This document shows, one piece after another, positions 3,433 through 38,200 of a stretch of DNA of 43,616 nt; positions within the stretch are counted from its first letter, which is position 1, and each line of letters begins with the position of its first letter. The stretch lies in NCBI GenBank assembly GCA_000934665.2, contig JYFJ02003319.1:1-43616 (forward strand), given 5' to 3'. The notes below the pieces were generated by a model that had not been told where the DNA came from, did no database searches, and worked only from the letters and a program-made list of their open reading frames with translations. Origin of the DNA: Catajapyx aquilonaris (lineage: Eukaryota). The translations under genes were made by a program, and so were the position numbers.

Positions 3433-4307
3433 TATTATTATTATTATAGTTGTCGTCATTAATTATTAACTAATTAATTGTCTATATTAATTTAATTTAG
3501 AATATTACATCACATATTTTGTGGATTACTACGTACTATTATTGTTTGGTAAATAAATCGTGTGTCTATCTTCATCATCCCTTATTTGACGTCATGAATT
3601 ACGTTCACACGCGTCACGTGATTAATCTCGAGAACAGGAATTTCAAGTTTAATTATCTCACGGCGTATCAGGTTTACTTCTCTGAAAAATCGACCTCGTG
3701 CGCTGCATCTTCTCACGCATCCCAAAATGCTGGATTTAATCTTGAGCAGGTAGTAAATGGCAAATCCATCAGAATCGAAAGTGCAGATAATACTAAAGTT
3801 ATGCTATATCTGCTGCAGTTCTGTGGTTTTGATATTGCGGTTTCGAATAAAGGCCACAGCCTCCTGTTATGATAGTAGCTGACTAGTTGATAAGGAAAAA
3901 CCCCAGTAAAGATGTCATGTGGAACTTGCAGAGCGTGAACTTTGTAGGCTTGAGGCATGTTTTGAGAAAATGTAGCCTCCCGTCCCTCTAGGCGCTAACC
4001 CATATTGACAAATAAAAAGGGTTAATTTGTTGAGTCTTGCAACGAGTCGATCGGTCATAAACAACATTTTATAGCAAGAGCGGTAGTAACCATATTACGA
4101 GCACTGAATATGTCCAATTAGCGGATATGCAATGTATATGGCAACTTTCATATCTGACACTTAAAATTCATAACCATCTGAGTCAAGTCTTGGTCTAAAT
4201 TGAGTCAAGTAGAGTACGATGTAATTGTTGATGAGTATAATTGATTGTCGATGGTATAAAGTCAGATTTCTGCGGAACAGTCACAGTCCCTACTAAACTG
4301 TTTGAAA

Positions 4308-4310
<3 letters not shown>

Positions 4311-4374
<64 letters not shown>

Positions 4375-4646
4375 TCATACCCCGTTATCAGCCATCGGCT
4401 CTTTAGGGGGGAAGTTTGTTTTGCCTGGAACTCTTTGCTTTCATTTTACTGTGCTCTTTGGGATAGGATAGGGACGGAAGGAAGCGGCTGTGGCCTATTA
4501 ATTACGGAAACAACTCCGGAATTTTCCTGGAAGGACCGTGGGAAACCACAGAAAACCGCGGTCAGAGTTGCCGGCCCCGGGATTCGAACCCAGGACCTCC
4601 CGATTAGCAGTCGGACGCCTTATCCACTATGCCAACCTGCTTCGGT
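4311..4646 (-). mobile_element. Full-length tRNA-derived SINE with Deu/Nin-like core and (TTA)n tail
   Basis: Minus strand: A box TGGCATAGTGG, B box GGTTCGAATCC, core ...GTGGTTTCCC...CCAGG...AGGCCACAGCCGCTTCCTTCC. Perfect 17-bp TSD TAAACTGTTTGAAAATA at 4294-4310 and 4647-4663. Confidence 0.92.
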
Positions 4647-7600
4647 TAAACTGTTTGAAAATAAGGCATCCCATTAATATTAAAACTTTTTTTAAATATC
4701 ACATTTCAAATCTGGCATTCCACTGTGACCTGATGGTTTAAGTCTTTAAGTACCAGTATCCATGAGTAGTATGGCCTATTGGTCAGAATAGTTATACCAG
4801 CTACCATAATTATATTGTACTGCAACTCCTGTCTCTTTCTATACCTATAATATGTATGTGTGACATCAGCACTCATTATGATGTTGGCGTCGGAATTACA
4901 TAGTTGAAAGTACAAATGGGTTCACTTGCCTCCAAAAAAAAGTTTGGATCTCTGTGACTCATGCACTGGCGACTGGCCGTACCTTTAATTGCAAGTCGAG
5001 GTGATCATCTTTTTGCAACCTTTGTGGACGAGAAAGATATTGCGACACATATGTCTCTTGGCCTGGAGTGAATGGACTGGAGAAGATATGTCGTGTGTAC
5101 GCGTCGGTTCGTATGTATATAATTACGCCAGAACACTACCAAACTTTTAATGAGAGATACATAATAATCTCAAGAAACACACTGCTTTGGGAATCATGCA
5201 TCATGGAATCTACGTTCTTAATAAATAATTTGCATTTTATAAACCTGTTTCGTGAGAAAAAAATGTCACAGTGTGCCACAAATAAACAAACTAGTGAACA
5301 GAGAAAGTAATATTGCAGGTAATTTTTAGCATGGAACCCATTGATCAAGGCATATGCCGGTTATCTTCACTGTTCATAGAATCAGTTGACAGCAGTTAGC
5401 ACACACCGATCATGTGCAATCTTATTAGTATGCATATTGACGTAAACATCGATGTGCGCGATTGGAATAAAAATAACGAGGGGAATTATTTTTCATATCT
5501 CAAGGTGCTCCTCTTTTTTCAAATTCCATGCATTTTATCCCAAATTGCAAAAGCCTGAATAACTTTTTACCTACATACCAGCACATATTTCTTTAAGACT
5601 ATTTCTATATTATTTTCCCATCAAACCAGCATGAGGTATGAAATAGTTGTGTAACTCCCTACGTACAGAGAAGGGGAAAAATTATTTACATTTCTTATTC
5701 TTACGAAACAGCAGCGGCTGCCAGCCAGAGAATTAAGCTTCATGAATTATACGAATTTTCTTGGGTCACAAAACCATTATAGTCTGCCGAAAGAAGGCTG
5801 ACTCAGTCCCGAAGAGGTGAAGGACTCCATACTATACGACCCTCATTGTCTTTATGCCTGAACATTGATCCTCTCCTCAGAAGCTACATAGCAATGAGAC
5901 TCTTTCCCAAGTCTCGAGGACACCATGCAAAAAGTAGAGAGAGAAAAGACACAAATAATGCATAGGATTCCCGCATTTTTGGTGACCTTCTCTTAAACAG
6001 ATCCCTGACCCATTACTGGTACAAAACACCCATCCGGACAGTGGCACACGATGTTATTTTGCTACGTAGAACAGTAATGCAAAAAAAATATTATAAAGGA
6101 TGAAAAGCATAGTATTTTAAATCGCTTTCATGCTGATGGGCAGATGTGACCTTGCCGGCGAGAGGCCTTTCGTGACTACGAGAGTAAAATTGACCCGTCC
6201 CTGCTGTGGTCACCTTTTCGTGAGATGAACAAGCAGTGTGCAGAATTTAATTACGGCCTTTCCGGCCCCTGTAGGTTGGCCGTAACTTCCAAGTGACTAA
6301 TATTCGTCGGGATGATTATTCAGATGTGAGTAATGTGAGCAAAAAATAAATTGTGCTTTGCTGAAAGGAGCGAGAATTATTACCTAATTCCCTCTATCAT
6401 TTTTCGCTTGGCCGCACTCACCTATGGTCATCATTTTTGTTTATTAGTATCACATATTTGCACTTAATTTTGTTTGGATGATTTTTTTCTTTACCTAGGA
6501 ATCTACTCCTCATTTACTGACAACTGAGAGGCGCTGAGAGGCTTGTATTATTATTTTGTTAAAAATAGCAAATGCGATTTCATTGATATTTGTGTAAATG
6601 ACAAATTGAAATGCAGCCCTCAAATAGTACTTCCGAAACGTAATGAAGGTCAAGAAGTATTCATATTTCCATAGTTTAGAATATATTCGTTGAACACGAT
6701 TATGTTACAGTATCACTTCCATACTGACATATATACAACAGTGAGGAAAGCTATTTGTATACTGACACATATGACAATATTACGGCGAAACACTCTTTTG
6801 TGTTACCTTCTCAGAGTATCATGGAAACAATAGCTATACATTACGTTCATAAATCTCTTCCACATCTGATGACTGACAGCTTCTTTCCGACACCCGACAA
6901 CATTGTGTGTACAGTACTGTACCAGTTTGGCGGCAATCGGGTTATAAATCTAACAGTATCAACGTAGAGAGACACTATGAATTATGGCTGCAACATGTGA
7001 AACTGTGTAAAATAATAGCCTACTAATATGTGAGTCATTCATTTGCAGAATAAGACTTTTAATAAATATTCTACATATTAATTAATTTGTGCAGGTGTGG
7101 TGAATAAGAGGCTTATCGTGCCACTTGTTGCACCCCTTAGTGAAGTGAGAAAATAAGATATGATAGAGAATAAATCAAAGAATTTCTTCACTTCACTGCA
7201 TGCGGTAAGCGCAAGTAATATTACAGGCAGCGTATGAAGCAAACTGTACAGTATAAGCCACTATAAATAGTGCCAGTGAGCTATGATGCAATGCAAATAG
7301 GCAGCTGCGGGAGGGAATTACAATTCATGCAACGTGTAACCTGCAAAATGGTGTACATCAAGTGACCTCGCGCTATGACCCGTGAGGTGAATCGCCAATA
7401 GGTCATTTAGACAGGACGCCAAGAATGAAGGATATATCGGCTTAGGACACCGCACGCTGGAAGGTCTACTGGTACGGAGAGTGGGTGTCCTTAAAAGCAA
7501 TATTCTGGGAAGCGGGAAACATTACATACGTACCAAGATCGTTGACTGGTAATGGGTACCGTTCCATTACAGACATATCTGCATATACCCAACGCAGTCG

Positions 7601-15203: not shown

Positions 15204-16683
15204 CTAAGATATGAAATATCCTGTTGGTTATGCTACCTTCCAACCGCCCACGGCAGCCATACGGGTAAGTACTGTACTTTCCCGACCGTTCGCATGGACA
15301 TAACAGATCCGAAATTGACTTGTGACTCTACTCTACTGTACGTCGGTAATTAAGAGTGATTTTGCCTACAGCTTGGAAAGAAACTTATAGGTACGAGGGC
15401 TCAGTTCGTACCAACATTAATCATTGGTTTTGGGTTATCGTTCAAACTTTTTAAAGTGAAAGTACTCCACCCTTCGTCTGGGAAATAATTAACGAAGTTA
15501 CGCAAGGAGTATGGAATTTTCGATAAAGATATTCCGAAATATCTGAAAAGTAACATAATAATGTATGATCAAATTCCCAGGTATGAAGGCTCTTTTAAAA
15601 CTAATATGCCATGGAAAGTACTGTAATACATATTCCATCTGTCATATCCTACCCCTAAATTCTAAAAAAGTAGGTGTGCTCGACCTTCAAACATTTAACC
15701 TCAGGCCAGAAATGATGCTTGTTCCACCGTTTTGCACAACAAGGTGTTGGTTACAAATTTTTCAAACAAAATACGCTATTATTCGCAACTGAGACGGGAA
15801 ATTTGTTAAATTTATCACTCAGGGTCAGGTGTCAAATTTGGGTCCTGCATTGTCTTATTTTTTCTATAAATGTGACCCGTCCTTGGTTCCGATTTTAAGT
15901 GTGAAATGGGTGGATTCCCATTTCTGTCCAACCACAGAAAAAAAGGAGACCCTCCCCTAATAACAGTAATGTCACGCACTATCACGTGTGTGATGCGAGA
16001 CATTACCATGCGTGTAACGGTACCGAAGGATTTTTTGTCTACTATTTATTTACAATGGTAGGCGAACGCCAAAAATTGCAACACGGAGAGCAAGAATAAC
16101 TTGAACAAAAGGCATTTAGACACGCTTATCTGATACGAACGGCCTTTAAAATCAGCTGCTCGAAAAAGCATTTTCATGACTTCTTGAGCAATAAAAGACG
16201 GTGCGTGCAGTACACGGTTGTTGTTGTTGCTGGTCAGTCATGTTTGTCAAGTTTGTGAATGGGAATATGTTCCGACACGACGTGTCATATTCTGTTTTCG
16301 ATGTAGTTTATTGACCTGCGAACCGGAAAGTGTATTTGGGTCTTGCAAAACTGCCACTATACAGTACAGTACACCTTTTGGTTCTATCACTTCCTCTTTT
16401 TTTACACATAGATAATGAATTAAATCAGTCACGATCCGACCTTGCGATGGTCACTCTTTTAAAGGCTACTGCTATTACGTAAAATAACCTTGGATTCACT
16501 CGCACGCAAATTGTCAAATAATGCCTATTTAATTTAAACATGTATTAAGAGCCTATTAGGTGCGAACGTGTTATTTATTATAACATTCAATTCCTGTTCA
16601 GTCAGCGTGACGAACAGGTTACGTATTACAAAGGAAAGATGTCTAGTACCGTTGTCCGCATATTGCGTTTTTGTGTTTGTGGT

Positions 16684-16698
16684 ATTATTATTATTATT

Positions 16699-16763
<65 letters not shown>

Positions 16764-17229
16764 TATTATTATTATTATTATTATCATCATTATTATTATT
16801 ATCATCATCATTATTATTATTATCATCATTATTATTATTATCATCATTATCATTATCATTTTATTTTATTTTATTTTTTATTTTATTTTATTTTTGCATT
16901 ACCCCATTGGGATTTATAATATCCTTTAGGGGGGTGGATTACCACCATCAGAAATTGGAGCCATATAAGAAGCTCTTAATTAATTACTCCAGGGTAGGTA
17001 GGAGGGGATGTGCAAAGTGCAAGTGCAATGCCTCTAATGGTCATTTTGTGAGCTCCCCCGGGTGGCTTAGTCTGTCGGAAATTGCCACTCGAAATGAAGC
17101 CAGAGATGGCCCAACTCTGCACGGATAAAGGTGGGAACCCCGGGTGGGGATCGAACCCGTGACCTTAATATCTGAGCGTTACCGCTGCGCCACTTCACCT
17201 CCCCGTTATAATCATCATCATCATCATCA

Positions 17230-21759: not shown

Positions 21760-22129
21760 CCCTGAATGGACCCACGTGTCTGCTGCCCCTAACCGTCCAC
21801 CAGAAGCGCTGGCGCCAACGAGTAGGCGTGGCCTGTTAGGAAGAAGCAGGCTACCGGTTGGCAGCCCTGGCTCGTGACGCGCGCTGATTCTCCTGCGAGC
21901 AGGCGATACCTACCTGCCTTCTATACTACTTACTGGCCGCACAGCAATCCAGAGGAGAGAGTCTCTCTGTATTGGTGTCTCAGTGCATACCATGGGTACA
22001 CACTGACTCTGTGCTCTGTATACACCGCGATGAAGTCCACGTTGTAATAGAAGGGGACACTAGTGGAGATATACGTTTCTTGTTTTCGATTGAATTATTT
22101 TTCGGAGGAGCAGCATCAGTCCTTTCAAG
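21760..22129 (+). promoter_or_regulatory. Putative SR-B core promoter and 5' UTR
   Basis: Locally CpG-rich, with E-box CACGTG (~21773), TGACG (~21875), a GAGAG tract (~21955) and an arthropod Inr-like TCAGT at 21980-21984, 150 nt before the ATG. Confidence 0.45.
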
Positions 22130-22154
22130 ATGACCAAGAGGACCTGCTGTGTTG
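22130..22154 (+). CDS. SR-B coding exon 1 (MTKRTCCV+G, phase 1)
   Basis: ATG in the context caagATG, followed by a strong G|gtgagt donor. Phase 1 fits exon 2 and gives MTKRTCCVVLLILTG..., a short basic/Cys cytoplasmic N-terminus like that of CD36. Confidence 0.75.
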
Positions 22155-23189
22155 GTGAGTTTTGTACCGAGAAGGGGGGGGGGGGGGTTCAAACCGTGCC
22201 ACTTTCGCCTCTTTGGCCCACAAAAGAAGGAAAGGGGGAATTCTTTTTTCGATCACCTGGGGCTCACCTGTGCCGGTCGGTTCCATACAAAATATTTGGG
22301 ACAATTGTTATATCATGAGAAGGGCTAAATGGTCCGTGGTATTGGTTTTTCGGAGCGGTGGTGGTTGTGGCGAACACTTGTTGCATCACGGTCCTTTTTG
22401 TATCGTTCAGCCATGGTTTATTGCAGTCAGCGGCGCGAGCTGCAATAATGGTCCAATCTCTTTAACAGCATGGCCAGGCTCCGAATTCAATGAATGTACT
22501 AGCATAGCTGTAACCTGAAGCTAATTGTTTCATATTGAACTTTTAAAGCACAATAATTTTATTATCATTGCATATATACGTATAAATAACAACAATGCTG
22601 TCCAAACTGTTAACCATATTGAACGTCGCGCAGTTAAAAATGGCCATGTAAATGTGAAATATCAGCCTGTTTTGTGATCTGAATGACATGGTGTCAGCTG
22701 GAGTGGTTCAAGTGCATTCTATCAGTTTGAGAAAAAAATACTGTCTATGAAGACTGTAGATAAGGAGCATGAATAATCCATATGGGAACATTGTTATACC
22801 GATGTTGTTTTTAGCTTGAACTGCAGGACAATGGTTTCTGAGAATTACACCGATCATTGAACGGCACACACATATGCTATCACACAAGCTGGCATATAAT
22901 AAAACGATAATTCGTACAGCATCCTCACATCTAAACAATCGTATACAACAGCCTAATAAAATTAGTATCAAAACAAAAAAAATACTTCCAGGAATATCCA
23001 TGTATCCATCTGCTCAAATCTGGAAAAATTAGCCACGTGGCACCCCCCAAAATTACAGATTGTATTTTGAGCAACCTGTTCGGGAATCGATCCGAAAAGT
23101 TTCGTCACCTGTAGGTATCTCTCTCTGCGCATGTTTCATAACAAGCACCCCTCCCCTGCCTCCCTCCCTAAAGAGTGAAAGCACCCGGG

Positions 23190-23254
<65 letters not shown>

Positions 23255-26200
23255 CTCTCATTTACTTTAGTGAAGGCTGTGCCAGGCGTTCTTCCTCATA
23301 GGATTTTGCCAAGCTCTGTTCTCAAAGGGATGGGGAGGAGGAGGGGGAGTTGGGGAGTGGTTGTTGAGAGGGTCAAAACCCGTAAAGTCCTCGGTTCACC
23401 AGATAACGGGATTCTATCGGAAGGGGACTATATATAGGGTGGAAAATGTCTGAGTTGAGGTCGAAAATATTTCTTCAAACGGACAAGGTCGTTAGGGGGG
23501 AAAAAATATATTTGAAGCGCGACGTTTTGGCTCATACTGTACATGCGCGGCATAATTCAATCAGAAATTTTGTAACAATGAGGATTGTGCAATAGGATGA
23601 AAATTTAATATTGTGACAAATATGCGGGAAGGACGACTGTTGCTGAATAATAGTAGATAGGTCAAATGAATCATATCTTATACTAGCAGATGGCGGATTC
23701 AAGGATAGTTTGCCTTCATTGTTGATAATTTCAATGCATTATTCACTGAATCATCCTGTCGTGTAATATGACACGCACGTTTGGATAATCTGACACATTT
23801 TTAATGAATATAACAATATGCTAAGAAATGATTAAATATGTGGAGAAGAGCTCAACAATGGAGCCTTGTATAGTTTTTATGGTCGATTCGTTTGTTTCTC
23901 AGTCGCGATATATAGCCGAAAAGTGCGATGATGCAGGGCTGCCAACCCACTGGCGTTACCACACAAGCGCACCCAAAACGACGGGGACCATTTCCGCGTT
24001 ACACAAGTGGCTTGAACACTCTTTGTCAATAGCAGTACAGTCATGATCAGGATCCAGTATCCAACTAGTGCAATGGGTTTTCTCGGACGGCAACTTTTTC
24101 TCTCGCACTTTTTCTTCTTGCAGCCGTCTGCTGTTTTCACGGCTTGCCAACTTGCTGGCAATAAACTTTCACGCATCTTCAGAAACCGAGCATGTTTTTT
24201 TAAATAAAAAAATAATTAAAATACTTTCAAATTACACACTTTTTGACGAGAGTGTGCGGATATTTTTCTGGAGATACCGGTTGCAAATCCGGTTATAAAT
24301 GTCATCCCCTCCTTATATCTCCTCAACCTTCCTTTTCCTGAAGTGGTGTCTCAACCTGGTAGGAAATGGTTGGCTTTTCCGTAATATATTTTCTAGTCGA
24401 GGATATTTTGTTCTAGAATGGAGAAAAAAAATAATAATGGGTGGATTAGTCACTAAGTGATGTGATCACAAGATACGCAACCGGAAAAATTGTCGCGCAA
24501 ATAATAATAGAGGAAGAAATCTGTCGGCGATAAAATTTCAAGGTCAGTCCAAATTTAGATATGGAAGACAATACCAATACGGTGGCAATAAAACGTGAGA
24601 GCAATATGTGTCTGAATTAAATTATTCTCACTGTGAAAGGAAAAAAAAATACGTCTTTGTAAGAAAAGTCACTGGTTGGCATTGGGAATCATTTGCTCGT
24701 TAAATTGTAATGAGAAAAATTTGAATACGTTAATGATGGCTTAAATGTCTTGGACAGCCGACGTTAAACCTTGACTAATAATGCATAATAGCGAGTTTAT
24801 GGCTGTACAAGTAATATCAAGGTTAATGAAATTGCCGAGCACCATTTCTGGTTGCCTGAGCCAGGTGAGAAAAATATCTATTGGGATCGCATGAAAGGTC
24901 ATTTTTCCAGGGAACTATTCAAAATGCATCGCATACCAAGCCTGATATAATCCCACTGATAATAATAATAGTAAACAAATTGAATTTACGATTACATCTC
25001 TTATCTACGTAATTTGTGAATACAAGATATACTTAGACAATTACACAGGGTCGTGCGCTATCCTGTATAGTCTCAGTCCAAGAGGAAAAGGTATATGAAT
25101 TGTTTGCCCCAACTACCAGTTGAAAGTTGGAAGCAAATTGTTTAGAGTAAACAAACCCTGCAACTGCTACCCCCGATCCTCCTTGACCCGAGGGCATGGA
25201 TACACCGTAATTTATGTTATAATGTATTTTTCTAATGCACATTATTTTGTTCTCCTTAGAATGGTTTACAACAATTTCAGCGTACCGTTTATCTTTTATT
25301 CTTGTCTGTGAAAGTGTTAAGTATAGATTGCAGGTTCCATTTGTCTTTTATATATATATATAAACAGTGCGTAACGTATAGTTGTCAGTAACACTCTAGC
25401 CTACGGCATGGCATTATGCACTTTCAGGTGACATTCCTGCGGGAAGTTAGGAACAATGACTAAGTACTTAAGCCTTTATGCCTCGGGTTATCGTCACTAT
25501 CTTGCGGAATGAGCTACTCTCGCAGCAAAAACAATAAAAACGCTTAGACGAAATGTAAAACTGGTGATATATTTTGGTACAGCATGTACTGTACTACCGG
25601 TTTTTTTTTGCCACAACTATGTGGTCACCTAGAGCCAGAAATAAACCGGAGACAAATGTTTGTTTCAAGTCATCGTGACATTTCACGATCCGTGTCTACA
25701 AGTCGTAATGACATTTCTGGTTGGCAATTGTTGTGGCACATATATACATTCAAATATGAATAATCCCTAACAGATCAAAATCCGGACAATCTCATCTTCG
25801 CTGTAGTATACGTCCAGTGTTCTTAACCCAGTAGACTACTTAAATCCTCCTTTTTGCGTAACCTTCCTGTTTAGAGCGTGGTCGAAACTCGGTACTTTCA
25901 CTTTTGAGGCGCACCAACACTTGGCTAAAGGCTAGGCACCATATTAATAATGAAGCAGAAAGAGAGAGAAAAGGCGGGTACTTTAAAAAGGACAGTTTTC
26001 ATAGGGATGTAAACGACCCGATCGCCTTGGAAAGGATCTAAAGAGACATGACCTACAGTGTACTAACTTGCCTTGATCTACTAAAATTATTCTTTCCCTG
26101 CCGTAAGCCTGTACGCTGTCCTATTTAGGGTCTCATCTCAAGTAGATGGATATTCCGAGTTTTTTGGCTATTTATTTACATATGGAAAAAAGTGAAAGCG

Positions 26201-29200
26201 ATAGGGCGATTGCCAACCAACCTTGTTCACCGTCGGACACGTGATTGCAAAGCAGACTTTAAAAGCCTCCCTGGAGATCATTGTTCAGTGTGCATGTGAC
26301 GTAATTGAAGAATCTTTTGTTGTCAATACGGCCTACATATATGTGCCGTCAGGTTCAATCATGACAGATTGTCATGCATGCGGTCGTTGTTCATTCCAAG
26401 ACAACGGGCTGTTTTATTTCAAGGAACTTTACTTGCATCATGTTCACTGCCTATTTGTAAGTGAAAAAAATGATTTTTTAAATGACAAATTCTCGACATT
26501 GTATGTTACACCAATGTTCATTACCGCATTGGAAATTGCTAGATTATTGGGCATAACTGCTGATAGTTGGAGATGATGAATCATATGGCACATTTCTTCT
26601 GGCACCATTTGGAAAAGAAAGGGTAACGGGGTTATGAGTGACACAGTTTGCCTGTCCACTAGCTCATAGAAAACAATAGGGATCTGGAGGTCACAGCATC
26701 CAGAAGCTTTCCAGAAGCACAGAATTATCTCCACACCCTCACTACATTCGTCATTGAGGCCTCAATGTGTTTGTACAAAGGACATTTCAAAGTACGATTC
26801 TCCTCGCTTATGTGGCCGAGGTTGGGGATACATTGACCTCCAGTCGGTCGCTAGTAACCCCAAAGAGCCTATTCAAGTGTCCAGTCTGCCCCATAAAATG
26901 CTAAAACTCGCCATCGGAAGCCAAGGCTACTCTACTGTGCATGACTGTAATAATAGCTATCAACCAACAGTAAACAAGTTTGGGGAAGTGCTATTTATTA
27001 GTAAAATAGCTACAGACCTTGATACGCAGTCTAAAATTATAGAGTCCAAAATAATTTATCTGACTACTATGTTTATTAATCTTTGTCCATCTAAGGTACG
27101 CGTGACATTGGCATTTTTTCTCCGTGTCTATCTTAGCACCTGAGTTGAAACAAAGAGAGCAAGGTCCTTCACGCTTCGAGAGCAAGAGTAATTCCGCAGA
27201 CGCATCGTCTGTGACCTGCACAAAAAATACATGGCAAAAAAACAACCGTTTTGCGAGACGTGTGTTACTGTGCCTTACGGTAAACCAAAAAGCCTTGCAA
27301 AAAAAAAAATGTGGGTCGATTTTATCTTCATTTTTTTTTTTTTGAAAACTCTCCACTGCACTTCTTCCCACATGAAATCTGGAACTTCTCTTCGGTAACA
27401 TACTGTTTAGTAAGTGGGAAACCACTTTTTGAAAGCATTATGTAAGGGTTTTAGTAACGTGGTTTAGTAAGGCAATCAAGCGTCCAGACCAATGTTGTTC
27501 CCTGCTAACATGCGTGTTATTGCGATTATTAGTTATGTAGTATTTACATTGTTGGTTTATCGGTTACTAAAGCTGTCACACTATTTTATATTGCGCATAT
27601 ATTTTTTTTTGGCGAACTTGCCCAATGTCAGCGAAAAATCGTTCTACAGGAAGATTCATTTGTGAGCTATTTACATGTATGCAAAGAGCCTTGCTTGTGC
27701 ATATAATTAGGCAATATAATTACGAAACCGTGCAATTACTGTACACTACTAACAGTTAATTCAGTTACGTAACTTTTCCACCTAACACTAATTGCTTCCT
27801 TCTGCCCTTACGCACAATCTGTACGTGTATATTTCAGAACACAATAGTTACCGGCAGTTCACGATTAATGATTCCCTTGGCCTATGATGTCCTGACCTTC
27901 GACAGAAAGACAATGGAATCTTGCGAGGAAGCGAACGTGATTAGAACAGACAACAATCCCTGGCTAGAAACAAAAAATATGCGGATGGAAGCGAAATTGG
28001 TAAACATCTTGAGTTGTGTGCAGATAACAAGGCAAACTACTCCACCCCACTCTCTCAAAAATCTTCTTCCTTTTTTTGACCCTCGAGCAAAAATCAGTGG
28101 CTTTTTTTTTTACGTTTCAATAATTTCTCGGTACAGGCATGAGAACTACGGGGTTTTTTTTTGCGGCGCAATGTATGAGAATTTTTGCAGTAGACATGTC
28201 AGAGAAAATGCCGGTCAAAAGTGGGTCCTGGCACGATAGGAGCTGTCTTGAGTGGTCAGAGGTCATCTGGCATGGAGGACAAATCGTGCTGATGCAATCT
28301 CCTTAAAGGGAGTAACTCAAAAACAGATATTTCGGCTGGTATGTGTCGTACAACAGAGAGATGGGTGCAGTTTTATTTGTGTAACAGGGTTTTTCACTTG
28401 CACTTGACCTCAATGTTACATTATAATGCACTCTATGTGAACAGTCACCCAAACTACGTGATAGATGATTTAAAATGTATTTTTAAACGGCGGTTTTATG
28501 CTGAGTAAACGTTCACTTATTAGTTTGTTTTCTGCTCATTAATTAGGCATAGGCTTATTAATACAAGAATGACAATACTTGACATTTTAGTAGCCTATAT
28601 ATGACAGGGAATTATCGAACCGTTTCTTTCCGCTATAAAAGCAATTATTTCTAGCGATAGGCACAATTCGTAAGCAAAACTTACTAAACACACCTGCAAG
28701 GTCATTTTTCTGGCGGCAATGACAGTCCGTGCAGGAATTCAAGTACTTTATACTGAAGGTAATGGGAGGTTCTTGCTGCGTGGGCCTTTCCTGTTCACAT
28801 ATAATATTTTTCATTATTGCTGCCAGGTAGTACAACACTTCCGATTCCTATCACAAAGAAAATAAATAATCAGTAGCATGTGAGAAATCAAAGCTAAGCA
28901 AAAATATGGTCGAGTCATTTTTAAACTTATTATACTCGTCTGGATTTATGAATACAGGCCTCATTGTACTATCAAAATTTAATTTAAAAACTGCGATTCC
29001 GTATAATATACTTCATGGAGGCTTCCATGCTAGTATTACACCGCATTAACGATTACAGATGAAAAATAGACAACTGGGACTCATGCAACTCCTGTTCTCT
29101 ATTCCACAAAATTTTTCACGGTCACCATAAAAACCAAGACATAACTTATCCTTGTATTTTGAACCCGTCCTTCCAACTATACTGTACATATGTACGTGTT

Positions 29201-32200
29201 TTATTTTTCCGGTAAATAAATTATCTGTAGTTATCAATAGCTATAATGATATAATGCCCCTGTCGCTTATCCTTTTAACATGAAACGACGTTACCAATTC
29301 CACTGCTGGTACGTAAAAAGAGTAGGCTACAGTGCATATACACGGAATTCGACAATGGTGATGACGTACACCCAGCAGTACACATGCATGGGACCGGATT
29401 CGTCCTATCTGTAGACATTTTCCTTCTAATACTACAATGGTATATCAAGTGTACAAATTTTTTCATCTGTTGAAGGCACACAGTAATTGCGGCCATGTCT
29501 ATTGATGCGGCGTCTGTGTGACCGTCCGTGCACACCCATTGCATGTGACGAAAATGGTCGCCACCGCCCTTCCTCCTTCCCGTTTGTCCTCTTCCTTTCT
29601 AGACCATTGAGGCTCACACACGTGAATGATCGCTATCTCCGCTCCTACCTCGGTATACCTATTCATCTCGGCGATGTAACGTCATTCTGGATTCTCCCAT
29701 GTGATTGTTGATGATATTGGGGTTGGCAATGCTGCGTCCCGTGGAAACCTACCAATATGGCGACTTTGTAGAAAGAGTACAATTACAATAGAAATAGAGA
29801 GTCCGACGAGCATCTCTAGTGTCAACGCACCTGTACCCGTAGTAAATGGCACTGCATACACATGGCGCCATAATACAGGATAGTCCAATTGAAACTTGCA
29901 ATGCAGAACGATAAGTCACAGTGGCATTATGTTGAGATGATTCAAAATTCAAAATTATGGTGTCACCATTTTAAAAACATATCCCTATATACAGGGTTCG
30001 GAAATTTAATCTACCTTCGCTTTGGGGGATGGTATAAGCGTTCTAGGTGATCATTTTAAGTATGGGTATCGTGGGTCTCCGAAGCACAGTTACCGAGATA
30101 ATTAGCATTAAATAAAAAGGGCACTATACCAGCTTCTATGTTTCGGATACAGTCTACGACACTTCCATCGACTAGGCCACAGTCTGCTACGCCTAATGGG
30201 ATTGCGTTTTAAATTTAAATTGCATGATAACACCTTAAATTTAAATGAAAAATGTAGGGTCGCATGGAGGGACGCATACCTGCCAGGATATTTTATACTT
30301 TGTGTTTGAAGCACATTATCTAGGTAACTATGCTTTGGAGACGCACGATACCTATTGATCGCCTAGAACCCTTCTACCATCCCCCAAAGCGAAGGTAGAT
30401 TAAATTTCCGAACCTGTATATGGGACTTTAATTTCTTTATCAAAAAACTTACCAAGCAGAATGTACTCGTCAAGGTCTACATTACACAATACATAACGAT
30501 ATTTCGACCCAAATGTGAGTGATCGTCTTGAATTTGAGGTCACTATTTTAATTTACATTCAGATCTCACTGTGTGTGCGCAGGTCTTACGCCGTTGTTTA
30601 TGTTACCACCCCGACAAAGTAAGCATGCCGTGCAGCCGACCTTGAGTATGGTTGTCCGAAATGTCAGAACCGCAACTGGTCCGTGAAAAAGAGCTGAGCC
30701 CGTGAGATTGACAAGGGTGTGCAAAAAGGAGAAAGTCCGCATGTGGCAACAATCAAAAAGGGGGTGGGGGATTCCTGAGAGAGCTGCTGGAAGAACTGGT
30801 CTGGGCAGATTTTTGAGGAAGGTTAGTAGTCACTTGGCAAAGCAAGCACCTGCTTACTTACACCTGCTCGATGTGGTGCCTTATGCTGGACTTATTTGTT
30901 GTACGGTACCGTATTGCACCATGCAATTACCCTACAGACCCACTACTGCCAAGGGAGGAGAGTAGAATTAGGAGGGGGGGGGGGAAGACGGAAGACACTT
31001 CTACATCAGCGTGGGAATATTTCCTTTCTGGACACTACTTTCATTTCCTCGCCTAAAACTCTTTTGTAGGCTACAGGTGGATTGGTGATATTTTTGCATT
31101 ATACAGCGATTTAAATGGACCGTTTAAAACTTGTAATACATTATTCGGTACATCGTACGTATTTTCGGGTAAATGCAATACAGTTTATTTTAAGCCAGAA
31201 TAGGAAATAGAGTACCGGTTTTGGGGATGTCAATAAGTTCGAATATACATAGTGCCGTCCCAGGATAAACCAAGTATGGCACCACTTGGTTCATCTCTTA
31301 CAACTTCTGAAACTCGGATTAATATTATTGCGCCCTTGAATTTGTTCATTAGCTCCAGGTTACATTGATTTCCTTTTACGAAACTAACTACAAAATAATA
31401 TGCCACTATTTTGTCGTAGCTGCCAATTTTTAAATTTTTATTTTGAAGGTGGTTCAATATTGTGTTCTAGAGTCGATTTTTTTCCAGTTGCATATTTTCT
31501 TATAAGGGATTTTCAAACTTGGGGACATTTATTTATCCATATCGACTTTTATTGGCTCGATGGTTGCCATTTGCAATTTTAAAATCGTCCTCGAACTTAT
31601 ACTTGAAATAGTAGGCTATTAATATTTTTAACTCTCTTTGTCTGTATATTATGGGAGGTCAGTTACGAGCATCTTACTTCTACTTTTCCTCTATATCTGG
31701 CTTTATCTTCTTAGGATGGCATTGTAAAAAGTCACAATGTCTTACGCGTTTCCTCTCTTCCGCCCACAAGCCGACTTATTGTAGTGTAAAGTGATATTAC
31801 AGCATCCTCCTATTCTTCTCGTGTGGACAAATGTCATTTATTTCCCCAGCCTACGTCACGACAATCCTTAAAAAATAGAACTCTGGTTTCTCTATCATTA
31901 TAATGTCTTCTGGATAACCCAGAAGGTCAAAGAACCTGTTCCCTTTATCTACTTTTTTTGAAACTTGACAAACCTTGTACTTACAGCACGGTCGCCATGT
32001 GAATTCATGACAACCTCTTCTTGGGTGACCTTTACAGTCATTGTAAATAATTGCCCATCGGTAAAAGGACTAATAATTATGTCCGTTCCCTCAACCGTGA
32101 ACAGCGTAGTTTGGATCATGTTGTTTGACAGCTGTCCATAGTATACTTTAAATATATTCAGTATGACAAAGTGGGCGATAGTGTAAAATGACACAATTTT

Positions 32201-35200
32201 TCACGACCTGGATTCGTCCTAATAAACCATTCAAATGATATCCGCTGAATGACATGGTGTTGGGAGGTTATCTCTAACCACCCGCTACTGCGATGATTTG
32301 CAAGTGTTCATACCAGTGTGAATAACTGCAGCTATAGGCGTCAATTAGCGATGGGAATTGAGGTTTGGGATGATTATCAAGTGGTAGGAAATTGAAACAT
32401 ATGTTGACTGCTGGGAAAGGATGAAGGAACAGGTCAAGCAAGAAAGCCCTTCGCGTGTGACTCACCCAAGGAATTATTCCTCATTATAAGCGATCCCCAT
32501 GGACGGAACGGACTAGTAATTTTAATTCCGGTTTTTCGCAGGGTTTTTTTTTTTTTTAAATGTAGCTGTATTATTAATCAATTACTCCTCTTTGTTTATT
32601 GTATACAAATAGTTGCTAACTGAATTACATCACAACGCTGAGAACGTTTACTGTAATGAGTGTTATGAATTGATTACACAGCGATATTCACACATGAGTC
32701 CGCGAAATGTTTGGTGATTTATTATTACTCAATATCTTTCAATCTACTTATATATTGTTAGGAGTGGGGATATCTTAAGTTGCTGTGAATCCTGCCTCCC
32801 GCATTTAGCCTAACATAAACATATTTTTGGGGATTAAAATGCCTCTTGTAAGACTAGCAAAGTGGTTGGAATCCTATCCTAATATTTTTGCTCATGACTG
32901 TGCACGTGTAACTCAGAATGAGAGCCCTCAGAGTGAGGGCAGATGTCATGCCTCATAACTTCTAGAAGTACTGATAACGGTGTTATAAATATAATTTATT
33001 ATATACAGCTATTTACTAAATTCGCCGCTTAATGCATTAATTTTGAGTTTCGAGCGTAACGCCACACAATCTGTCACGCAAACATCAACTTACCCCATCC
33101 TCCACCAGCATGGTCTAATTTATGGACAGTCCCTAGGTGCCAAAATGTGTCAAAGGGTATTGCAAGGTTCGAGATGAAAAGATGGGTTTCCCTGACAAAT
33201 TGGTTGAAAGCCGCTAAATATATTGTAGGACAGTGACAAATATATTGTGACCTAAAATTGTGCAGGTTGCATTTACTTCGGCGTTATGTAGGTTAAGACC
33301 GTATTGAAGCAGGATTTCTTCACTATCTAGATACGATTTCAGTCACGTGTTGTCCTCTGGCGAAACAAAACAAGATATCATGCTATGAGAAAAGCAGTGA
33401 CACCCCATTCCCCCTCAACGGAAATCAAGTTCCTTCTTATCAAAACCTTCACTGCTTCAGGTAATCCGCAATAAAACTAATTTGCATATGCACACCCGCC
33501 TGCATGCTACAGAAATTAACTCTAATATCACAATGCAGAAATCTTAGTTGGAAAAAAAATAATCTGGTGTCACGCTAGTGTTTCAGTGTGTATTATTTTT
33601 ATCAGGATACTATTGCTCCACACTCTAACGTATCTAGTCTACCTTGCAGACTACATAAATAAATATGCGAGTTACGCGGAAATCAAGGCTCTGATCCAGA
33701 AAAGAAAATCATGACCTCAAAATTGCTGGAAAACGCCTTGAATCCGCATTTGTATGGGAAGTATCAGAATCATGAGTCACGCCATCTTGGCAGATATTAT
33801 GATGATCCTCTTCAGCAGTGGATCAAGTCCCCCTCCAGGCTGAGACCTGGCCAAACCGTCCCCACGCACTCGGTTTTTGATAAGGACCTTGCTTCACTTA
33901 TATAGGGGTGAACGATTCTCGCAGAATGCCAAGGTGGGCCTGTGGCCCGCGGGCCGAAAACACACGCCCTTACCTTGTAGTTCCTGTTCGTGGCCTTCCT
34001 TCACCACTCATTTTTTTTAACGCCATGGGTTCTTCTTAAGGTGACCGCCAAAAAAAACCGGTCTAGAAAGGGTCGAATGTGGTCCGAATCTGAGGGTTGC
34101 AAGGTTGCAATTACCATTTGATCGGTTTTTGAACTCTACTTTTTCGTTGCAGTTTTGCTGATCCTGACTGGGGTGATCCTCCTGGTTGGGGGAGTTCTGG
34201 TGGTTTTATTCTTCCAAGGTTTAGTAGACTCCATGATATATGCTGTAAGTTATTTATTCATTATGCGTCAAATTTGCCAAAAAAAATTGTCATCATGGGG
34301 TTACTGACTTGTGTGCTTTCCTTTTCTGTTTCATTTCAGAGACTTCCATTGTCAGACGGCTCGGATGTGTACAAGTTATGGAAAGATCCTCCTATTAATC
34401 CGTTACTAAAGGTGTATTTCTTTAACGTTACAAACTACAAAGAGTTCCTAGAGCTGGGTGAAAAGGCCAAACTTAAGGAAACCGGACCTTATGTGTACAG
34501 GTAATTGCATTTGCGTAGATTCACAATTCAAAACATTCGCACTAATATGACAGACTGTTGCTTAAGGTTTCAATTTATATCAGTCATAAATAATAGCAAC
34601 ACATTTGATGCGGTAACATCAGATGTGTTGCGAGCTTTTTAAATTATCATGTTAACATTTTGCGATTAAACTTACGCGATCGCAAACTGTTTAAATGTAT
34701 ACGCACTATGTCGTATATTGTACAGAAAATCACTACCGAAGCAATCTAGTGGCATTGTGGGTCTAGAAGATTTGAATTTAATGATACGCAGATTTATAAT
34801 GTATTACTGCCCAATAATTTTTCAGAGAAACATGGAAAAAAGTGAATGTATCGTTCAATGAAAACGGGACAGTGACATTCAGGAGCATGAGGACGTTCCA
34901 TTTCGATCGTTCACTGTCCGTAAGCGATGAGAACGATATCATTGTTGTGCCAAATGTTCCCATGATGGTAAGATCATTTATCACTAACGTGTCACTGTTT
35001 ACATGACAAAAATTACTCGAGACTGACGACATTTGTGTGTGTTTTAATCCACTAAATCTTGTGTGTTCTCTGTGTGACTAACCCTGTTTGTGAAGCAAAC
35101 GATGATTATGTGTTTGTGTTTTTTTTAACCTTTCATTGCAGAGATTCGTTTACTGGATGCAGTATTCCAGGAAGCTCGTCATTCACAATATTATGCATCT

Positions 35201-38200
35201 TTTGGAGACAATGAACGTACATCCACTTTTAGTACAAAAACTCAGGGGAATACTGTGGTTGCATGACCAGTTCAATGTATGAGCAATGCACACTTACACT
35301 TCTGTAAAACACTTCTCATCTCTTGGTGTTGACCCGATTTTCTTCTATCTACGCATGTTAAATAAAAGAAAGTTTGTAAGTGCGCACGTGATTTCAAAAT
35401 AATAATGTCTGTACTAACTCGTAATCTCGACTATGACTTGTATGCGACTCTTGACATTTTCCATCCATTCGCGAGACCTCACAACGCACTTGCAACACTG
35501 ACTTGATATGACGTGAATATGTTTTAGGGGACATTCTTTGATAGAACAGTTTTACTGATTTTTGCGTTCCAAATACGACATGGTAACTGCTTACAAGTGA
35601 ACTTCCACATCCCAGAGCCTTATGGCACAATTCACTCTTGGTAAGAATACCATGCTGTACTTGGACTGTAGCAATCACCGAAACTTCTCTTGTAGTACTT
35701 TTGGGACTGACAGATTATTGTACATTGGTAGTGCCATTGTTATGTGCTTTATTACCAAGCTTTGCAAGAACTCATGTCTAATTTATTCGTGTGAATATTT
35801 CAGACAGCAGTATTTCAAATGCAACATTCCAGTAGGCTTATTAGGAGAGCCATCTCCACATTTTTGGACATCATCAAAATGCAGCCTTTTGTGAATAAAA
35901 CAGTGAAGGAATTGGCTTGGGGTTATGAGGATCCACTCATAAAGTTAGCCAAGCAAGTCATGCCGGGAAATAAAAAGTTTCCGTTTGATAAATTTGGATT
36001 CTTTGTTGGGGTGAGTTATTGTATGAAGTATACTACAAAATAATGTAATCTACACTCATAGATGATCGATTATTATTCATTATATTCACTGGAATAATAT
36101 TGCTTTTTTTACCATAGAAAAACCACACTCCGAGTGTTCCCATGACAGCATGGACTGGGAAGGATGATCTGACAAAATTTTTGAAGATTGACAACTACGA
36201 TGGCAATAGCAAAATCTCCTACTGGAAGACTGACTACTGCAACATGATCAACGGCAGTGACGGAACTGGTTTCCCGCCAAAAATGAACAACAAAACAGTT
36301 CTACATATCTTCCAAGGGTTAGTTTTCCATATAAGATACAAAAATATACTCAAGCTGCTTTAAGAAGGTTTTTCACTGTGTTAAGAAAATCTGGGTGATA
36401 GAAAACAATTTACATTCAATAACTTTGTATTTCTTTCTATGCAGGGAATTCTGCCGCTCGCTACCTCTCGTGTTTGACAAAGAAGTTGAAGTTAGCGGAA
36501 TTCCTGCATATCGGTTCATGCCTCCAGAGAACTTGTTTGACAATCCAGAAGAAAACCCAGAAAATGAGTGTTTCTGCATTGGAGGACCTCCGTGTGCTCG
36601 ATCTGGTCTCTTCAACATCAGCGTGTGTACCTTCGGTAAGTCCATGTTACCTGTAGCACTCTCGAAAAAATAGAACGTCAGCATTTTACTGTAGTAGGAC
36701 ATAGTTCACGTAATTTTCCGATGAAATGTTATTTATAACACCATATTATTGAATAATATTTTATAGACCCAACAACCATTATACTAGTAGTAGCCTATAT
36801 CGTGACTTTACCTGACGATTTGGCGGCATGTAGAGATACTTCCAGCCCACACGATCTCTCTTCACATTTTCTACAATACACTGCTCATGTCACTTTCATC
36901 CCACAGGTGCACCAGTATTGCTGTCCTGGCCTCACTTTTACAACGGTGACCCAAGCTTGTTGACTCAAGTCGAAGGTGTGAAACCAGACCGAGAGAAGCA
37001 TAAGTTTTACATGGATGTCCAACCGGTAAAATTTCTGTCCCAAAGGGTAATAAACTTAAACGCTCTTTTGCTCATTAAAATGCCTTCTTTTCAGAAAATG
37101 GGTCTTCCTCTGGGTGCCAAAGCCAGGGTGCAGCTCAACGTGGCCATGGTCAAAGTCGAGGATGTGGCTCAAGTGTCCAACTTCCAGAATGTCATATTCC
37201 CCATCCTATGGTTTGAAGACGTGAGTATATTGTACAAGTACTTTACTATTTCTCTTAATAATGCAAGGTGTTTTATATCCCTTAAACAATCTTCTATGGT
37301 AAATTCCTGGGCACTACAGGATCACTCTATGTAGAAGTGTCATTTGGTCTCTTAACATCGTTCCTAGATCAGCCCAGGGCCCCACTGCAAATTACACGCC
37401 CAGCCCCCCCCCCCCCCCCNCCCCCCCCCCCCAATCCAACTCCATTATATTGATAAGGAATCATAATATTGTATGACGAATCATTCTGCGCACAGGGTGT
37501 CATAATTCCAAACAAGACCCACGAAATGCATCTTTGGCAAACTCTTAATTCTGAAAGGTCATTCGAATGATTATTTCCATGTCCAATTTCATGACCCGCG
37601 CATTTTCAATGCTAATTCTGTAGTAGCAAAACAAAACGGACTGTCTTGGCCCATGCTGCTCATTAAGTAGGCCTACACAGTATTTTTTATGAGTTTCACT
37701 TTGGAAAATGATCGTTCTGAATTTGCAACTGTGAATAGGTATAGAGTCAAAAACATGTGGGCTTCCATACAGCAGTCTCGTTACTGAGATAATTATCATT
37801 ATACTCATCCTATAATATTACGACAGCTTACGTCACGCCATGATATCACGATTTGAAATAAAACCCCATGGCACGTATTTTTAAAAGACAAGGACATGCA
37901 AATGGACGTATACCTCACAGGATATTCGATACCCTGTGTTTGCAGCCCATTATTTCAGTAACGAGGCTGCGGAGACCAAATTACACCTTTGCATCTGTGT
38001 CTCCCTAAGAGTTTGCCATATAATGAGTTAGCCAGAAATGTTATAAAACACCATGTAGAGTGTCACAAGGATAGGAGGAAGGAATGTGAGGCTGATGATG
38101 ATGATTGCGATTAAGATTTGAGGGACTAAAGATGACTAATAGTGTGCAGAGAATTCTTGAAGAATGATAAGTACAGTTCAAATAACTTGCATATTGTGAC

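Follow-up and report, generated by a model that had tools for sequence, protein, structure and literature searches.

A contig of Catajapyx aquilonaris (JYFJ02003319.1 in assembly GCA_000934665.2), whose whole stretch of 43,616 nucleotides is referred to here as the window, carries one gene of the CD36/scavenger receptor class B (SR-B) family on its plus strand. Intron 4 of this gene contains a segment, designated 5a, that resembles the exon following it, exon 5 (designated 5b where the two are compared). A first-pass annotation of this DNA had proposed that 5a is a hidden duplicated exon capable of swapping the ligand-binding apex of the receptor. The duplication in this proposal is genuine, while the working swap is not supported: the frame of the copy closes at codon 47, its in-frame splice donor is weak, and the one transcript available skips it. 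We consider it probable that 5a is left over from a tandem duplication of exon 5 and may once have been coding.

The receptor gene and its exon 5

The RNA evidence for the gene comes from one public sequencing run, examined as assembled contigs. These contigs are spliced, and the run was therefore treated as RNA-derived; five of them lie on the window, at least 99% alike and without differing letters, so the run is taken to stem from the same species. A 2672-nt contig (depth 207) shows eight GT..AG joints on the receptor gene, which place the exons around 5a. Exon 4 (34826..34967, plus strand; contig joints 34497>34823, cut at +3, and 34966>35803, cut at +1) ends in ...VVPNVPMM in phase 0, with the donor ATG/GTAAGA. 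Exon 5 (35804..36010, plus strand; joints 34966>35803 and 36009>36117) has 69 codons, is in phase 0 at both ends, and is the copy used in the transcript. Exon 6 (36118..36317, plus strand; joints 36009>36117 and 36316>36444) starts with KNHT... behind a phase-0 acceptor. The numbering of exon 4, intron 4, and exon 5 in the first-pass annotation is right, with the first coding exon of the gene found at 22124-22154. Exons 4, 5, and 6 match the Pfam family CD36 (PF01130) at consecutive profile positions (84-133 at E 9.5e-13, 137-202 at E 7.6e-13, and 204-270 at E 2.8e-16, respectively), which identifies the host gene as a member of the CD36 family.

Among sequences in the PDB, residues 9-49 of 5b align to CD36 residues 150-190, and residues 12-54 to LIMP-2 residues 127-169; these alignments are weak (E 0.012-0.041) but consistent with Pfam. 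In the excerpts of the literature on which this and the later comparisons draw, CD36 residues 146-164, with F153 and K164, lie on a membrane-distal helical platform that binds PfEMP1, oxidised low-density lipoprotein, and fatty acids (PMC5052687), and the apex of SR-B1 comprises residues 137-214, forming helices α4-α7 (PMC7419504). The α4-α5 part of the apex is described as the region of SR-B that senses ligands and as labile, with independent expansions in several lineages, while a highly conserved hinge (a short strand plus α6) holds the three-helix bundle (PMC10715195). The WGYEDP block of 5b appears to fit this hinge as it is described in the excerpts of PMC10715195. The first-pass assignment of exon 5 to the apical ligand-binding region is thus sound: by the CD36 and LIMP-2 alignments, read with the excerpts of these three papers, the exon corresponds almost exactly to the ligand-binding apical helices of CD36, SR-BI, and LIMP-2.

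5a is a diverged copy of the first 46 codons of exon 5

The segment 5a (35142..35279, plus strand) corresponds to codons 1-46 of exon 5. Its frame encodes 46 residues (RFVYW...DQFNV) and is closed by a TGA at 35280-35282, in the place of codon 47. As the first-pass annotation had it, 5a and the opening 46 codons of exon 5 align without gaps, with nine identities among the 46 residues. In this register the pair has a BLOSUM62 score of 43, compared with a mean of -40.8 for shuffled sequences (standard deviation 14.0, z 6.0), and none of 100,000 shuffles reached 43, a significant outcome for the alignment on which the proposal had been built. Across 86,958 six-frame windows of 46 residues, a score of at least 43 was reached only by exon 5 itself (234) and by 5a (43), the next best window scoring 15. 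A single BLASTP comparison of 5a with 5b gave 9/40 identities and 23/40 positives at E 5e-06.

The residual DNA similarity that had been claimed for the pair is also real. Overall, 65 of 138 nucleotides are identical, compared with 26% expected from composition, and exon 5 and 5a are the only forward-strand 138-nt windows with at least 65 identities (the next best has 59). A repeat search recovered a 20-nt core at 80% identity common to both, at a spacing of 662. By codon position, the identities number 23, 27, and 15 of 46. The register also holds, with falling strength, in every third of the alignment taken on its own (z 4.3, 3.35, and 2.7).

The homology sets in precisely at the AG of a phase-0 acceptor that is itself homologous to the exon 5 acceptor, and nothing resembling exon 4 was found upstream of 5a, either by tblastn of the exon peptides or by reading the sequence. 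A retrocopy or a fragment of a paralogue was considered and ruled out, because the homology begins at the exon boundary with nothing exon-4-like before it. When all ten exon peptides were compared with the window by tblastn, intron 4 yielded no further relic of an exon; this search also overlooked the 5a-5b pair. On sequence grounds, then, 5a stems from a tandem duplication of exon 5, and it covers the part of the exon that encodes the α4-α5 region of the apex, plus the start of the conserved WGY hinge.

Past codon 46 the copy is truncated or no longer recognisable. Between 35280 and 35381, nothing similar to codons 47-69 of exon 5 was detected, with 207 of 2000 shuffles aligning as well in a nucleotide local alignment and 2052 of 3000 in a protein local alignment. 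The 5a frame closes before the span of the parent exon is complete (at codon 47 of 69), and nothing corresponds to the remaining 23 codons. In 5b, these codons (KLAKQVMPGNKKFPFDKFGFFVG) follow the WGYEDP block and are identical at 11 of 23 positions to a cricket (Gryllus) protein, P0002; the most conserved third of exon 5 has no equivalent in 5a. Between the stop and a consensus donor further downstream lies a tail (35283..35375, plus strand). It contains an AATAAA at 35361-35366, about 80 nt past the TGA, by which an alternative terminal exon would be possible; this reading of the AATAAA found no support, as the spliced contig joins across it and no contig covers 35248-35535.

Splice signals and transcripts

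5a is preceded by a polypyrimidine tract and a CAG acceptor (35113..35141, plus strand), in which 14 of 18 positions at -20..-3 are pyrimidines; the nine confirmed acceptors of the gene have 10-16 of 18. This is the phase-0 acceptor (tttcattgcag, ending at 35141) named in the first-pass annotation, and it is present as stated. At the other end, the candidate in-frame donor is AAT/GTATGA (35277..35282, plus strand), the last three letters of which are the TGA stop itself. It departs from all nine confirmed donors at +4, with T for A, and from seven of the nine at -1, with T for G; judged by these letters, the proposed donor is weak. No other stop-free, in-frame donor would retain the 45-codon segment in full. 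An exon at 35142-35276 would have 45 codons, would be in frame, and would be 24 codons shorter than exon 5, which confirms the coordinates and the length difference given before. With a consensus-like donor further on, TTT/GTAAGT (35376..35381, plus strand), the exon would be 234 nt long, in phase 0, and would include the TGA. If the 5a acceptor is ever used, this donor at 35376 would be its likeliest partner, and the result would be an unproductive, stop-containing transcript. A docking/selector RNA structure was also considered and rejected: the inverted repeats around 5b are no stronger than in shuffled sequences (111 of 200 shuffles were as stable).

In the transcript, the spliced contig joins 34966/7 straight to 35803/4, thereby skipping 5a. 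The sole contig touching 5a (record 3, 34997-35247, depth 5) is unspliced and colinear with the genome across 35141/35142. This depth is comparable to the 2.3-3.3 of further intronic contigs of the receptor gene, and the contig ends at 35247, short of the TGA at 35280. No joint at 35142, 35276, or 35375 is present in the contigs of this run. The 5a and 5b isoforms that had been proposed thus find no counterpart in these contigs, which hold neither a 34967>35142 junction nor one from 35276 to 36118 or 35804; the only spliced contig joins 34967 to 35804. The unspliced contig begins exactly 30 nt past the end of exon 4 and stops exactly 30 nt before GTATGA; with 31-letter words, such ends could mark variant sites or breaks in coverage.

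Divergence of the copy

The residues that 5a has kept are largely not those that the family keeps. Among the first 46 codons, 5a retains two of the 22 positions common to 5b and Gryllus P0002 (P28 and W39) and seven of the 24 positions at which 5b and P0002 differ (Fisher p 0.14), so that its identities are not concentrated at conserved sites. They mark recent common descent with 5b and not the upkeep of family-critical sites. The WGYEDP block of 5b reads WLHDQF in 5a. Over these 46 residues, 5a shares four with P0002 and 5b shares 22, and the divergence between 5a and 5b (9/46) far exceeds that between 5b and its cricket homologue. Compared with its parent exon, 5a therefore bears an in-frame stop, the loss of its 3′ third, and the loss of 20 of 22 conserved residues, all of them disabling lesions. 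With 5a as query, Pfam returned no family at E ≤ 10, while the corresponding 46 residues of 5b match CD36 at E 3.6e-06. Among PDB sequences, too, 5a had no match at E ≤ 10, whereas 5b finds LIMP-2 and CD36.

Wider searches for relatives of 5a were limited in what they could detect. Protein word searches were empty with both 5a and 5b, and the blank for 5a is therefore uninformative. A phmmer search of 1.84 billion representatives, which is insensitive (it needs roughly 50 bits), turned up no protein resembling 5a, and the ESM Atlas gave no usable match for 5a. Two hits were rejected. P0001, a 1698-residue perfect-repeat protein found by phmmer, is an artefact with no matched stretches, and the metagenome scan with 5b led to one locus (L001), where a bacterial gene for ATP synthase gamma matches by chance on NLIKLAKQVM. 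An AlphaFold2 model of P0002, computed without an alignment, had a mean predicted local distance difference test score (pLDDT) of 40.9 and was not used for mapping the exon.

The first-pass annotation had taken the 46 codons that stay open despite heavy divergence as a sign of selection. Open 46-codon frames are found in 9.2% of 81,362 non-exon windows. We also simulated neutral decay, evolving the 5b sequence under a neutral, AT-biased substitution model. After decay to 59% nucleotide identity the frame was open in 14% of cases, with a BLOSUM score to 5b of 50 ± 21, and after decay to 51% it was open in 12%, with a score of 24 ± 19; across the simulations of 5b decaying to the observed similarity, the frame stayed open in 9-14%. 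Given these frequencies, the open frame of 5a is not evidence of selection. The observed score of 43 is unremarkable and lies inside the neutral range. The uneven identity over codon positions (23, 27, and 15) would be expected under selection on the 5b lineage, whatever 5a does.

Weighing the readings of 5a

The account that we favour as the probable one begins with a tandem duplication of exon 5 that took in the acceptor and, counted from the start of the exon, no less than two-thirds of it. The copy came to lie 662 nt upstream of the original, inside present intron 4. Past codon 46 it is truncated or unrecognisable, its frame is stopped at codon 47, nearly all family-conserved residues are gone, and the one transcript available skips it. 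It may have been translated for some time before it decayed. We infer that 5a no longer contributes a functional protein isoform.

Several observations weigh against a simple relic. In strength, the 5a acceptor is on a par with the confirmed acceptors, and the alignment is free of gaps along its 138 nt, with all thirds in register. At 0.6-0.8 substitutions per site, neutral DNA is expected to carry several indels (the indel-to-substitution ratio is roughly 0.05-0.15). Hydrophobic positions are retained in 16 of 19 cases between 5a and 5b, and second-codon-position identity is 16/19 at hydrophobic sites versus 11/27 elsewhere (Fisher p 0.0056); neutral simulations give at least 16 hydrophobic positions with P 0.10, 0.03, and 0.004 at 61%, 52%, and 45% nucleotide identity. 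Furthermore, the RNA evidence is a single run kept as contigs, and contigs drop rare variants, so that they cannot show the absence of a rare form. The gapless register and the hydrophobic pattern are a moderate hint that 5a may have been translated for part of its history.

These same features would suit a coding exon that is still at work, rare or tissue-specific in its use, and spliced either mutually exclusively (4-5a-6) or as a cassette (4-5a-5b-6). The former product would be 24 residues shorter, and the latter 45 residues longer with a second α4-α5-like apex segment. Besides the strong acceptor, phase 0 at both ends, and the gapless register over 46 codons, such an exon would account for a hydrophobic pattern beyond most neutral simulations and for the bias in codon-position identity, and the α4-α5 apex is labile and independently expanded in several lineages (excerpts of PMC10715195). 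We nevertheless regard it as unlikely, since the contigs of the one run have no joint at 35142 or 35276 and one of them crosses the acceptor unspliced, the GTATGA donor is weak, nearly all the conserved residues are gone together with any Pfam match, and no 5a-like protein turned up in the (insensitive) search of the representatives. A 4-5a-6 product would moreover be expected to lack the rest of the apex module, as 5a covers its α4-α5 part only; missing would be the conserved hinge and the FG.F segment encoded by codons 47-69, the stretch with 11 of 23 residues identical in cricket. That 5a serves an unproductive purpose, either as a poison exon (35142-35375) reducing receptor output by nonsense-mediated decay or as an alternative terminal exon yielding a truncated protein, seems improbable to us. 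The former would fit the strong acceptor and its consensus donor, which bound a 234-nt stretch in phase 0 with a TGA inside it, and the latter the AATAAA about 80 nt past the stop; against both stand the spliced contig, which joins straight across, and the lack of any contig between 35248 and 35535, and at the composition of the window an AATAAA would be expected by chance about once per kilobase. Chance resemblance of an ordinary piece of intron is hardly credible. An open 46-codon frame alone is common (9.2%), and tblastn with default seeding did not report the 5a-5b pair at E ≤ 1. Set against this, none of the 100,000 shuffles reaches the score, 5a tops the 86,958 windows by a wide margin after exon 5 itself, the segment starts exactly at an AG in the phase of 5b, and no other window matches its DNA identity of 65/138; the chance reading is effectively refuted by the shuffle and window scans.

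Relation to known systems

Unannotated tandemly duplicated exons are common in introns, with about 10% of animal genes affected and only some of the copies expressed, according to excerpts of PMC9013439. The relic of a duplicated exon that we consider probable would thus be an ordinary outcome. Like the unannotated intronic duplicates reported there (Letunic et al. 2002, via PMC9013439), 5a occupies the intron next to its parent exon, shares the strand and phase of that exon, and is detectable by similarity alone. Unlike those described in the excerpted text, it is far more diverged (9/46), is truncated and stopped at codon 47, and resides in a gene of the CD36 family. Our literature search, in a limited collection of papers, found among the matches listed no tandem-duplicated exon reported in a CD36-family gene.

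5a and 5b also recall mutually exclusive pairs such as SCN-alpha 5a/5b and ATE1 7a/7b, in being homologous neighbours of the same phase that could swap a functional surface. The members of known pairs are of near-equal length, with intact frames, conserved splice sites, transcripts, and often competing RNA structures. In contrast, 5a would have 45 codons versus 69, and it has a closed frame, a weak donor, no junction, and no structure beyond chance. Similar to the SR-B apex expansions in the excerpts of PMC10715195, 5a concerns the α4-α5 ligand-sensing region between conserved motifs; those expansions are fixed in the constitutive protein, however, whereas 5a is outside the mature transcript seen here.

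If the alternative exon 5 did work, one receptor gene would have two ligand heads, an arrangement that was not seen for the CD36 family among the matches listed in our literature search. A live 5a would mean that exon duplication and alternative splicing diversify the CD36 apex within one gene, and would provide a snapshot of the origin of lineage-specific apex expansions across eukaryotes. As a relic, 5a would be a dated footprint, recording that the apex-coding exon was duplicated in the lineage of the Catajapyx aquilonaris gene. In either case, its two junctions make it a well-defined target for RNA-seq from this species.

Other features of the window

The remaining exons of the receptor gene follow from the same contig. 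Its joints delimit exons at 34153-34244 and 34340-34500, then exons 4 to 6 (34826-34967, 35804-36010, and 36118-36317), followed by 36445-36635, 36907-37025, 37095-37220, and an exon from 38210. The loose 5′ end of the contig maps to 22124-22153, in the first coding exon, where an ATG at 22130 opens the frame and the donor GTGAGT lies at 22155. Intron 1 (22155-34152) is therefore about 12 kb long and fills much of the window. Putative membrane-type hydrophobic stretches were read by eye in exon 2 (VLLILTGVILLVGGVLVVLFF) and exon 10 (YVSFVVGSIILICVAIYLV), and exon 7 is 61% identical to two Gryllus proteins named scavenger receptor class B / peste.

Within intron 1, a weak exon-4-like stretch (26391-26480, plus strand; tblastn E 0.016, 35% over 31 residues, from one of ten queries) lies inside an open reading frame at 26205-26576, in which Pfam found no family; from its sequence, it could be another exon relic or a chance match. 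A 106-codon open frame on the minus strand (35394-35714) lies between 5a and 5b, and Pfam assigned no family to any of 12 long open reading frames of the window, this one included. Long trinucleotide microsatellites at 4306-4677 and 16538-17128 give rise to spurious poly-N, poly-S/L, and poly-I open frames. In intron 9, a poly-C run (37404-37432) contains a single N at 37420, which is probably assembly uncertainty in the homopolymer.

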